From assembly GCF_965641715.1 (NCBI RefSeq), contig NZ_OZ282453.1: DNA of 64,000 nucleotides; one strand, written 5' to 3'. The DNA is from Escherichia coli (GTDB taxonomy: Bacteria > Pseudomonadota > Gammaproteobacteria > Enterobacterales > Enterobacteriaceae). Shown in pieces: positions 42,301 to 45,300 of this stretch (its first letter is position 1; each line of letters starts with the position of its first letter). Position numbers: made by a program.

Positions 42301-45300
42301 GTGTCGCTGCAATGAGCGACAGAGCGTAATCCAGCACCTTGTCACCCCGTTGCATTCCGTAGTCCGCCATATCAATGGCTTTTACGGGTATTCCCTGGGG
42401 GGCGGCCTTTTCTGCGAGCATGTTTAACATATACTTTACCTGCGGTCCGAGTAGCACCACCTGATATTTTGGAAACTGAATATCAAATTCGGAAACTCCG
42501 TAGGCATCTATCTCTACCGGTAGCTCTCTGCTTTCTGCGGCCTCGACCATTTTTTTCACCAGCAGACTGGTTGACATCCCCGCAGAGCAACACAACATAA
42601 TCCTGACCATCTGACACATCCTCTGAATGTAAAAATCTATTTCGCAATTGATTTGATATCATTTGGAAACCGGTTTCCATTCATGGAAACATAAACTGTG
42701 ACGGCTATCAGATTTCGCTATAAAGTCGCGTTATTATTTCGATTCTGTTCACATTTTTATCATTATTAGCTCAGTTTTGAGATGCCATGGAAAATCGGTT
42801 TCCATTAGAAAACGGAAACAGTTATACTGCGAACGGCTAATATTTAAGCCAACAGGAATTCAGGATTGTGGGAGCCAGGGCCGCTCTGTCAGGGGAGAAT
42901 GATGTCTACTATCAATGATGTATCGCGTTTGGCTGGCGTTTCAAAAGCGACGGTTTCTCGGGTGTTGAGCGGATCGCGTGGTGTTAAAGAAGCCAGCCGT
43001 CTCGCGGTATTGAAAGCCGTCGAAGAGCTAAACTATCGTCCCAATGTCATTGCGCAGTCACTGCTGACGCAATCTACGGGCTGTATCGGTGTAATTTGTG
43101 CTCAGGAAAACATTAATCAGACCACCGGTTATCTTTACGCTCTGGAAAAACATCTCAGCCAGCATCAAAAACATCTACTTCTTCGCTTCGCCAGCAATAA
43201 AGCCGAGGTAAAGAACGCCCTTGATGAGCTGAGCTGTGGTTTGTGTGATGACGTACTGATTATTGGTGCGCGTTTCCCACTGAATATTCATCAGGAAAAC
43301 GTGATACTGGTGGACTGCCTTGAGACGGGTAATGATGTTAACAGTATTCAGTTCGATCACACATTCGCGACTGAAACCGCTTGTAACTATCTGATAAGTC
43401 AGAACAGACGCCAAATCGCCCTCATCCACCCACACGGTATGGGATTTTCTGACCAGGTCTTACTGGGCTATAAACACGCGCTGGAGAAAAACTTTCTTCC
43501 CTTTAACCGTAATCTGGTTTTTATGGAAGCAATCTCTTCCTCAGTGGCTTTGCAGGAGCTGCTAAATAACGCCTCAACACTGAACTTTAATGCGTTATTA
43601 GTTGCTGATGAACAGCAAGCGCAGCGGGTGATACCGCAATTGCAGGCGTTTAATAAATCTGTTCCTGAGGACATTATGGTATTTAGTCTGGCGGGTACTG
43701 TTCATCTTCCGGGGATACCGACCATTCCGGCGATAGAATATTCGCTGGACGAAATGGCCGCCCGCATAGTCAGTTGGCTTAACGAGAAGACGCAGACGAT
43801 GCTGGGTTCATATGTTCTGCGCGGTGATTTAATTATTCCCGATGTACGTTCACGTTAAGTGCTAAATGTATGACGTGAAGCTGCGGCTTCACGTCTACAT
43901 ATCCGAGCATTCAACCTTGCCTAACGCTTCCCAGTAATTGTTCTGGTTATTGCGTTCCATCGCCACAATAGCCTCACGGATGTGCTGCTGATTACTTTCA
44001 TCAGACAACATTATCTTTTCCCAGGCCTCGTCTGATATTGACGCTTGTGGAGTACATATTTTCCGTAAATCAGCTAATACGGTCTTTTTTTCATTCCGTG
44101 ACTTCCAGCGTGGTGAAGGCAAACTTCTCGCCATCAAATAGCCCCTGACTGGTTAGTTTCAGCGCGGGGATCACTGGCAGAGAAAGAAACGCCATCTGAA
44201 TAAACGGCTCATCGGGTAACGGACCGCATTCACGGGCGGCGGCTTTCAAGGCGTCAATTTGCTCGGCCAGCGACTGCGCCGTGTCGGTGCTCATCAGCCC
44301 GGCAATGGGCAACGGTAGATGACTTTGTACCTGGCCGTTACGTACCACGCACAACCCGCCGCCATCCTGAATCACCTGATTGACCGCCAGCGCCATCTCT
44401 TCGGCACTGCGACCGATCACCACAATATTATGGCTGTCATGACTGACCGTCGCAGCCAGCGCACCTTCATTCAGGCCAAAGCCGCCGAGCAAACCACAGG
44501 CCGGAGCCAGACGTTGCCCGTAACGCTCAAGTACGGCAATAAAGCACACATCATCGCGATCAAAACCATTTTCGCTGTAGACGCTGGAGCGGGAGTGCGT
44601 AATCAATTCGTTATGGATGACGTCAATGACCCGATAGCGTTTTCCGGGTGTAAATTGCTGGGCAAAGTCGCTGGCGGAAACTGGCTGACGGGCAATGGTA
44701 TTGCCATACGGCGGAGCGGATTGTGCCAGTCTCGCCGACTCTTCCGCCTGTAAGGTTTGCGCGTCAATCGGTGCGCCTTTCACCAGTACCTGCTGCACCG
44801 TGACCTTACGCGCATCGCTCAACAGGACGATATCAGCCTGCTTACCGGGTGCCAGTAAGCCCAGGTGATTCAGACCAAAGTGGCGCGCCGTAGACCAGCT
44901 GGCGACGCGATATGCCACATGCAGCGGCACATTGTGTTGTTCGATCAGGCGGCGAATTAGGGAATCGATATGCCCTTCATGGGCGATCTCCCACGGGTTA
45001 CGGTCATCAGTACAGAGCATGCATTGCGGGCTGTTAAATTCGTTGATCAACGGTGCCAGTGCGTTGAGATTGCGGGCAGCGGACCCCTCGCGGATCATCA
45101 ACGACATGCCGAGTTGTAATTTCCGGCGTCCTTCTTCCAGCTGATAACTTTCGTGGCAGTTTTCAATACCCGCGGCAATATAGGCGTTGAGTTCTTTACC
45201 ACCCAAACCCGGGCAGTGACCGTCCAGCGTCAGGTGGCGAAATGCATCCAGTTTATCGAGCAGCGCATTCTGCCCGCTAATTACGCCAGGGTAGTCCATC

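Follow-up and report, generated by a model that had tools for sequence, protein, structure and literature searches.

The window (the whole 64,000-nucleotide stretch of Escherichia coli DNA that was analyzed) carries a block of genes between ade and uhpT. In K-12 and other non-carriers, ade is joined directly to uhpT through a spacer of 45 bp, and the K-12 gene order is yicS-nepI-yicN-adeQ-ade-uhpT, with no block. In the window, the block comprises genes for a DUF1198 paralog, a LamB-type porin, PTS IIA, a GH1 hydrolase, PTS IIC, PTS IIB, and a LacI regulator, followed by a yicS remnant. The three PTS components are of the lactose/cellobiose type, and a putative beta-glucoside label for the block is reasonable. 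The features discussed below are as follows.

37087..37144, plus strand: uhpT-side junction, with the K-12-type uhpT terminator kept, followed by ATTC and then by 28 bp
37145..44095, no strand assigned: inserted block, ~98% identical to E. fergusonii
42902..43858, plus strand: LacI-family regulator gene, in the inserted block and convergent with the yicS remnant
43872..43895, no strand assigned: hairpin with a perfect 10-bp stem and a 4-nt loop, GACGTGAAGC-ygcr-GCTTCACGTC
43895..44137, minus strand: chimeric 80-aa frame, 14 codons of out-of-frame ade followed by 66 codons of 5'-truncated yicS
43895..44095, minus strand: yicS-family remnant, 66 codons (NEKKTVL...VECSDM) and a stop, corresponding to residues 32-97 of the 97-aa full-length protein
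44085..44095, minus strand: ade-side junction, GGAAT joined to GAAAAAAAG
44096..44137, minus strand: first 14 codons of the 80-aa ORF, which are ade 3' coding sequence in a different frame
44091..45857, minus strand: adeD, adenine deaminase, 588 aa, whose protein end TLEVTE is unaltered by the insertion

The first-pass annotation had pointed to an 80-aa minus-strand frame that overlaps the ade 3' end at the boundary of the inserted block, and we could confirm both its position and its context. The ORF opens with a TTG at 44137, has an ATG at 44134 as its second codon (a start there would give 79 aa), and ends with a TAG at 43895-43897. It shares 47 nt with the 3' end of ade and lies at the ade-proximal edge of the PTS/GH1/porin block. 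The internal Met proposed as an alternative start is also present: Met43 (codon 44009-44011) opens a peptide of 38 aa, MLSDESNQQ...VECSDM, which does not overlap ade.

YicS-family sequence in the 80-aa frame

ORFs of such length are common in the window, where 130 of at least 80 aa were found versus ~66 in shuffled sequence, with several non-genic ORFs of 80-150 aa no more than 3 kb from the one studied here. Its length alone is therefore not beyond chance, and the property that is above chance is its homology to the YicS family. The NCBIfam model NF041639 (YicS_fam) matches residues 9-80 with an E-value of 3.6e-28 and 97.6 bits (cut-off 45), the match spanning only positions 25-96 of the 96 in the profile. 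A Pfam scan of the 80-aa ORF gave no match, the local Pfam copy apparently being without PF27428; a database search, on the other hand, returned 111 homologs, every one of which has PF27428 (YicS). A PDB sequence search with YicS gave chance-level matches only. The closest full-length homolog is P0002 (97 aa), the product of E. fergusonii yicS, which is 94% identical to the remnant. The frequency of frames of this size could suggest a chance ORF that never had a coding history, but such an origin is refuted by the match to the family model and by the identity to the full-length E. fergusonii protein.

Residues 15-80 of the ORF align to family positions 31-96, and their identity is 94% with the E. 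fergusonii protein and 85% with E. coli YicS. The homology begins at NEKKTVL (family residue 32) and covers the 3' two-thirds of the yicS gene. Residues 1-14, in contrast, have no yicS homology, and K-12, which has no insert, shows the identical alternative-frame string at the 3' end of its ade gene. The alignment of 11 full-length members revealed a signal peptide (MK, a hydrophobic stretch, AxA, and then D/E-S) followed by a mature domain of ~76 aa with two cysteines. Columns 2-18 of this alignment are missing in the ORF, and columns 19-31 are occupied by out-of-frame ade sequence. The native 5' end of yicS (…AAAAGGGTGAGTCCATGAAACC… in E. fergusonii) is missing and ade sequence abuts codon 32, which leaves the remnant without the promoter, the ribosome-binding site, the native start codon, the signal peptide, and the first 10 mature residues. 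Both family cysteines (ICTPQ ... VECPD) are kept, as is the RNNQNNYWEALGKVEC core. Serine replaces the invariant proline after the second cysteine (ECPDM) in the window and in 11 of the 25 carriers described below, whereas the other carriers keep the proline.

A tblastn search within the window found no second yicS copy. The near-identical strain PapM-32-1 has a canonical, intact yicS beside nlpA, ~25 kb away and past the end of the window; DNA identity between the remnant and the resident yicS is ~82%. The yicS gene of EAEC 042 reportedly appears to be AggR-regulated.

From this comparison, the 80-aa ORF is very probably a 5'-truncated yicS-family pseudogene at an insertion junction. As an ordinary gene remnant, it is not a new small gene. 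Its remnant status is already public, as RefSeq/PGAP flags a partial YicS-family pseudogene. The earlier suspicion that coding was doubtful and that the frame might be a junction remnant is thus well supported: it is a chimera of out-of-frame ade and a 5'-truncated yicS that was brought in with the block.

Donor similarity, junctions, and hairpin

To characterize the block, we compared positions 37145-44095 with eight E. fergusonii loci by blastn and found 98.0-98.2% identity over 6953 bp, with no rearrangement. Of the flanking genes, both ade (92-93%) and uhpT (96-97%) are less similar to E. fergusonii. Eight chromosomes (4.56-4.73 Mb) encode P0002, and in these the locus reads yicL-yicS-(hairpin)-LacI-PTS IIB-IIC-GH1-IIA-LamB-type porin-DUF1198-ade-uhpT; there, yicS sits tail-to-tail with the same LacI-family gene, with the same hairpin between them. 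Members of the P0002 cluster carry the name E. fergusonii, and two of the locus records are CP079884, from E. fergusonii 6S41-1 (PMC9204285), and CP042945, from E. fergusonii ATCC 35471 (PMC10740950).

Proteins of the block are 98-100% identical to those of E. fergusonii, except for the DUF1198 protein (95%), and 84-96% identical to those of Citrobacter. In several Citrobacter species the order is yicS-LacI-IIB-IIC-GH1-IIA-porin-nepI-yicN. Since the same adjacency of yicS and LacI occurs there, the tail-to-tail pair is old and native, and the Citrobacter gene order places the native position of the block between yicS and nepI/yicN. The resident yicN is still present in the window, and its product shows 85% protein identity to the DUF1198 copy of the block. 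E. albertii was considered as a donor and rejected, since its locus is without the block and the identity of its YicS to P0002 is only 75%. The block is rare in a species in which the empty site is otherwise found, and it is closer to a foreign lineage than its flanks are, as expected for horizontal acquisition.

At the ade side, AAT (44093-44095) is common to the end of ade and to yicS codon 32, and the switch from one sequence to the other falls within this AAT. K-12 reads ...GAAGTCACGGAATAATAAAAAAAGCCCGGCGTCATGCCGGGC... at this point, E. fergusonii yicS reads ...TCGGCAAATGAAAAAAAGACCGTATTAGC..., and the window reads ...GAAGTCACGGAATGAAAAAAAGACCGTATTAGC...; a similar A7G..CCG run follows AAT in both parents (the K-12 ade end and E. 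fergusonii yicS). The stop codon of ade is now a TGA (44091-44093) made from the yicS codons AAT GAA, whereas K-12 has TAA.

At the uhpT side, the terminator GCCCGGC-ATGAC-GCCGGGC-T7 is found at 37087-37112 (GCCCGGCATGACGCCGGGC-T7-ATT, 37087-37115). It is followed by ATTC (37113-37116), which is present at both ends of the insert, and by a 28-mer (37117-37144), AATTTGACCAGATTAACGCCTGGGGGAG, after which homology to E. fergusonii begins 40 bp upstream of the DUF1198 start codon. No match to the 28-mer was detected in the other fetched loci, E. fergusonii included, and its sole metagenome match is another E. coli with the same insertion. Only a weak resemblance was observed to the adeQ-yicN spacer of E. 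coli and to the region upstream of DUF1198 in E. fergusonii. Because these searches located the 28-mer in no donor-type context, the true donor was probably E. fergusonii-like, with an arrangement not identical to that of the E. fergusonii genomes examined. The PGAP annotation of the block lists no integrase, transposase, IS element, or tRNA. Judged from the junction sequences, a microhomology-mediated illegitimate insertion would be their simplest account.

A promoter scan of positions 43400-44500 identified no sigma-70-like site, and an Rfam scan of positions 43000-45000 (E<=1) gave no match. ATG 44134 is preceded, at a distance of 7 nt, by an SD-like AGGGG with a dG of -5.7 kcal/mol. When ATGs at every seventh position on both strands of the window were sampled, 16% of them scored at least -5 kcal/mol, and SD energy scoring is therefore non-discriminating for ATG 44134. 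The sole SD-like sequence before Met43 is a GAGG 13 nt upstream, a poor spacing.

The hairpin at 43872-43895 (fold -23.5 kcal/mol, z=-4.6) lies between the convergent yicS remnant and LacI-family gene and represents the native yicS/LacI intergenic element. It is kept, with variation, in the E. fergusonii and Citrobacter loci that have the LacI block, is absent where the block is absent, and is conserved in all carriers. No other strong hairpin now lies between it and ade, whose stop is ~195 nt away. A simple terminator scan gave two matches, both of them weak stems within coding sequence, and did not call this hairpin, which lacks a canonical U-tract in the ade direction. Because the insertion left the K-12 uhpT/ade hairpin next to uhpT, ade transcripts presumably run through the remnant to the hairpin at 43872-43895.

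Distribution and decay among carriers

To investigate the distribution of the junction, we searched 5426 complete E. coli genomes. Of these, 5408 matched the query in its ade part, and the remnant together with the block was found in only 25; the ade-uhpT spacer is intact, with a complete bidirectional hairpin, in 5383/5408. We retrieved and translated the junction from all 25 carriers. Its position is identical in every one of them (25/25), which is consistent with a single insertion event. Conservation of the frame across strains, the check attached to the first-pass annotation, showed a different picture, as 12 of the 25 carriers have a lesion in the 80-aa frame and the frame is not conserved. 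Four different lesions account for these.

80-aa frame intact: 13/25 carriers
A7 tract at the junction (44085-44091) shortened to A6, splitting the ade-derived start from the yicS frame: 4/25 carriers
7-bp deletion inside the conserved NNYWEAL motif: 3/25 carriers
T insertion, with loss of the stop codon and extension of the frame to 101 aa: 2/25 carriers
CTG to CTA, silent in ade, giving TGG to TAG, a stop in the ade-overlapping part of the 80-aa frame: 3/25 carriers

The yicS-derived frame of 66 codons is open in the window and in 20/25 carriers, is frameshifted in three, and has lost its stop in two. PGAP annotates a partial or frameshifted 'YicS family protein' pseudogene in all 25, with 'missing N-terminus' as its description of the remnant. 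Of the substitutions seen only in the remnants, nearly all change the amino acid (M to I, P to S, N to K, W to R, A to V). The change of P to S hits the proline that is invariant in 11/11 aligned full-length members, and that of W to R hits a tryptophan conserved in 10/11. The remnants show five non-synonymous changes, and one synonymous change was seen among nine DNA-aligned E. coli sequences (eight carrier genomes and the window), compared with one non-synonymous and four synonymous between two full-length orthologs. These counts, which are too few to be statistically significant, suggest relaxed constraint on the remnant. By the evidence of these alleles, the remnant is decaying in the strains that carry it.

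Origin of the remnant and comparison with known systems

Very probably, a ~7-kb E. fergusonii-like segment entered an E. coli lineage at the 45-bp spacer between ade and uhpT. This segment extends from the middle of yicS, through the convergent LacI gene and the PTS/GH1/porin operon, to just upstream of the DUF1198 (yicN-like) gene. Insertion was probably by illegitimate recombination at short microhomologies, candidates for which are AAT or an A-rich stretch next to ade and ATTC next to uhpT. At the yicS breakpoint, 66 codons were joined, accidentally in frame, to ade 3' sequence read out of frame. An exported YicS cannot be made from the remnant, since the break took away the promoter, the ribosome-binding site, the start codon, the signal peptide, and the first 10 mature residues. 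In all likelihood, the remnant is passively transcribed with ade, as a new 3' untranslated region of that gene. It provides the TGA stop and, ~195 nt on, the old yicS/LacI hairpin. Such a passive role is plausible, although putative.

Several other readings were weighed against this insertion. The arrangement ade-yicS'-block-DUF1198-uhpT might be ancestral in E. coli, with the remnant a relic of an old local duplication and the block later cleanly deleted in most strains. Paralogs of both end genes (yicS and yicN/DUF1198) do occur within 25 kb in the same genome, and the block is ancient in the Escherichia/Citrobacter group. However, every other species examined has the block between yicS and nepI/yicN and never between ade and uhpT, the block is nearer to E. 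fergusonii (98%) than are the flanking core genes (92-97%), and the remnant and the resident yicS share just 82% DNA identity. In addition, a clean deletion restoring the spacer and hairpin in 5383 of 5408 genomes is implausible, and we regard an ancestral arrangement as very improbable indeed. A translated product was considered in two forms. The whole chimera could be a small cytoplasmic protein started inside the end of ade, that is, a YicS-like domain without signal peptide. It would be co-transcribed with ade, and some translation is possible given the AGGGG 7 nt upstream of ATG 44134, although the SD score of this ATG is not unusual. The frame is open in 13/25 carriers but broken in the other 12, in some of them by a stop-creating change that is synonymous for ade; its 14 N-terminal residues are an out-of-frame ade string that K-12 also has; and a two-cysteine periplasmic protein deprived of its signal peptide would be unlikely to fold or act normally. 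That this chimera is a translated protein is exceedingly unlikely. Alternatively, a 38-aa peptide could be translated from Met43 (44011), clear of ade. Its part of the frame is intact in 20/25 carriers, and one public annotation (P0090, 'putative transport protein') begins at Met43 in a stop-loss variant. Yet this start has no well-spaced Shine-Dalgarno sequence, the peptide would be an arbitrary C-terminal half of the domain, window-type alleles have serine in place of the invariant proline, three carriers are frameshifted and two extended through stop loss, and PGAP rejected it as a gene; we consider it extremely improbable.

The remnant DNA might also have been kept as an exapted non-coding element, serving as a 3' UTR and terminator for ade or as a buffer of convergent transcription against the LacI-family gene. 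The K-12 uhpT/ade hairpin remained on the uhpT side of the insert, and the hairpin that now comes first after ade is conserved in all carriers and in the donor-type species. Nevertheless, it has no U-tract in the ade direction and was missed by the terminator scan, its conservation is equally explained by a native role for yicS and the LacI gene, and indels are tolerated right beside it. Such retention is possible, but we hold it to be doubtful. A stronger version, in which the remnant is not inert, is very unlikely. In this version, ribosomes or RNA polymerase at the end of ade could run on into the remnant, which would act either as a signal-less cytoplasmic YicS-domain peptide of 79-80 aa (from ATG 44134) or 38 aa (from Met43) with a new role, or as a 200-nt 3' UTR and hairpin that sets the stability or termination of ade mRNA and buffers convergent transcription with the LacI-family regulator. 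If the UTR version were true, purine salvage would be linked to an imported sugar operon. Residual translation of the remnant into a functional product is, at best, very improbable as well.

Under the preferred reading, a truncated yicS pseudogene at the edge of an imported segment, the ORF matters little beyond annotation, in that it should not be called a small protein gene. Of modest value is the base-resolved insertion junction of an E. fergusonii-like sugar-utilization block at a non-homologous site in a few E. coli lineages. By this insertion, one passenger gene was cut, ade was given its stop codon, and ade was parted from the K-12 hairpin. Carrier strains could be tracked with the junction GGAATGAAAAAAAGACCG as a lineage marker.

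When compared with the YicS family (NF041639 / PF27428), the remnant keeps the stop codon of E. fergusonii yicS and the downstream hairpin held in common with the LacI-family gene. It departs from the family in having neither a start codon nor a ribosome-binding site of its own, in the loss of the signal peptide and of the 10 residues that begin the mature protein, and in the serine at the ECPDM proline. The whole block resembles the yicS-linked LacI-PTS-GH1-porin locus of E. fergusonii and Citrobacter in gene order, orientation, and sequence. There, however, the locus extends from an intact yicS to nepI/yicN, whereas here it extends from ade to uhpT and yicS is cut. The remnant is also similar to the gene fragments that border horizontally acquired segments: <0.5% of conspecific genomes have the segment, one end gene is truncated, the segment is more foreign-similar than its flanks, and 3-4 nt are common to the junctions. 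It differs from them in the source of the segment, the orthologous neighborhood in a sister species (in E. coli, yicS...yicN is ~5-25 kb away). Despite this source, the segment entered at a non-homologous site and left its counterpart in place.

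The imported sugar-uptake block

The segment inserted between ade and uhpT spans about 7 kb. Among 5426 complete E. coli genomes, it occurs in only 25. It is approximately 98% identical to the corresponding E. fergusonii locus. The block and the short sequence at its uhpT-side edge are as follows:

37117-37144, 28 bp AATTTGACCAGATTAACGCCTGGGGGAG, separating the uhpT terminator from the point where E. fergusonii homology sets in
37145-43858, inserted block: DUF1198 paralog, LamB-type porin, PTS IIA, GH1 hydrolase, PTS IIC, PTS IIB and LacI-family regulator

Since E. fergusonii is classically positive for cellobiose, a beta-glucoside or cellobiose phenotype may be conferred by the block. 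The start of the LacI-family gene is placed at TTG 42866 (330 aa) in the mechanical ORF list and at ATG 42902 (318 aa) by PGAP; the latter codon is preceded by a strong Shine-Dalgarno sequence, GGGGAG (dG -8.3 kcal/mol). The 28 bp at the uhpT-side junction had no match in the other fetched loci, and weakly resemble the 3' end of adeQ and the region upstream of yicN. In one carrier, E. coli LH50-c, ade (L042, 433-615) is annotated as a partial pseudogene which encodes only the C-terminal domain, the N-terminus being missing.

Paralogous and other genes nearby

Two DUF1198 genes are present in one neighbourhood, and further genes of note lie beyond them:

37185-37637, imported DUF1198 gene
47419-47871, resident yicN, also a DUF1198 gene
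47987-48653, minus strand, HTH-domain protein and RelE/ParE-family toxin pair, between yicN and nepI
50268-62550, air/eaeX, an inverse autotransporter adhesin gene of very large size (3511-aa ORF), followed by eilA (HilA-family regulator)

The imported DUF1198 protein shares 95% identity with its E. fergusonii counterpart and 85% with resident YicN, and both genes appear to be intact. The HTH/toxin pair is absent from this position in K-12 and appears to represent a second small strain-variable insertion. In the near-identical strain PapM-32-1, genes resembling T3SS translocators (SipB/SipD-type) come after air/eaeX and eilA and precede resident yicS and nlpA.

The locus in E. fergusonii and Citrobacter

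In E. fergusonii (L003-L010), DUF1198 and ade are adjacent and divergent, with 285 bp between them, and adeQ, nepI and nlpA are missing from the locus (about 16554-17291). Among the Citrobacter loci (L016, L018, L019, L022-L027, L030, L032 and L035), the yicS-nepI interval holds a lone GH1 gene in many species, and the full LacI-PTS-GH1-porin block is retained in others. This mixture of GH1-only and full-block loci suggests that the block has been reduced repeatedly, in separate lineages.
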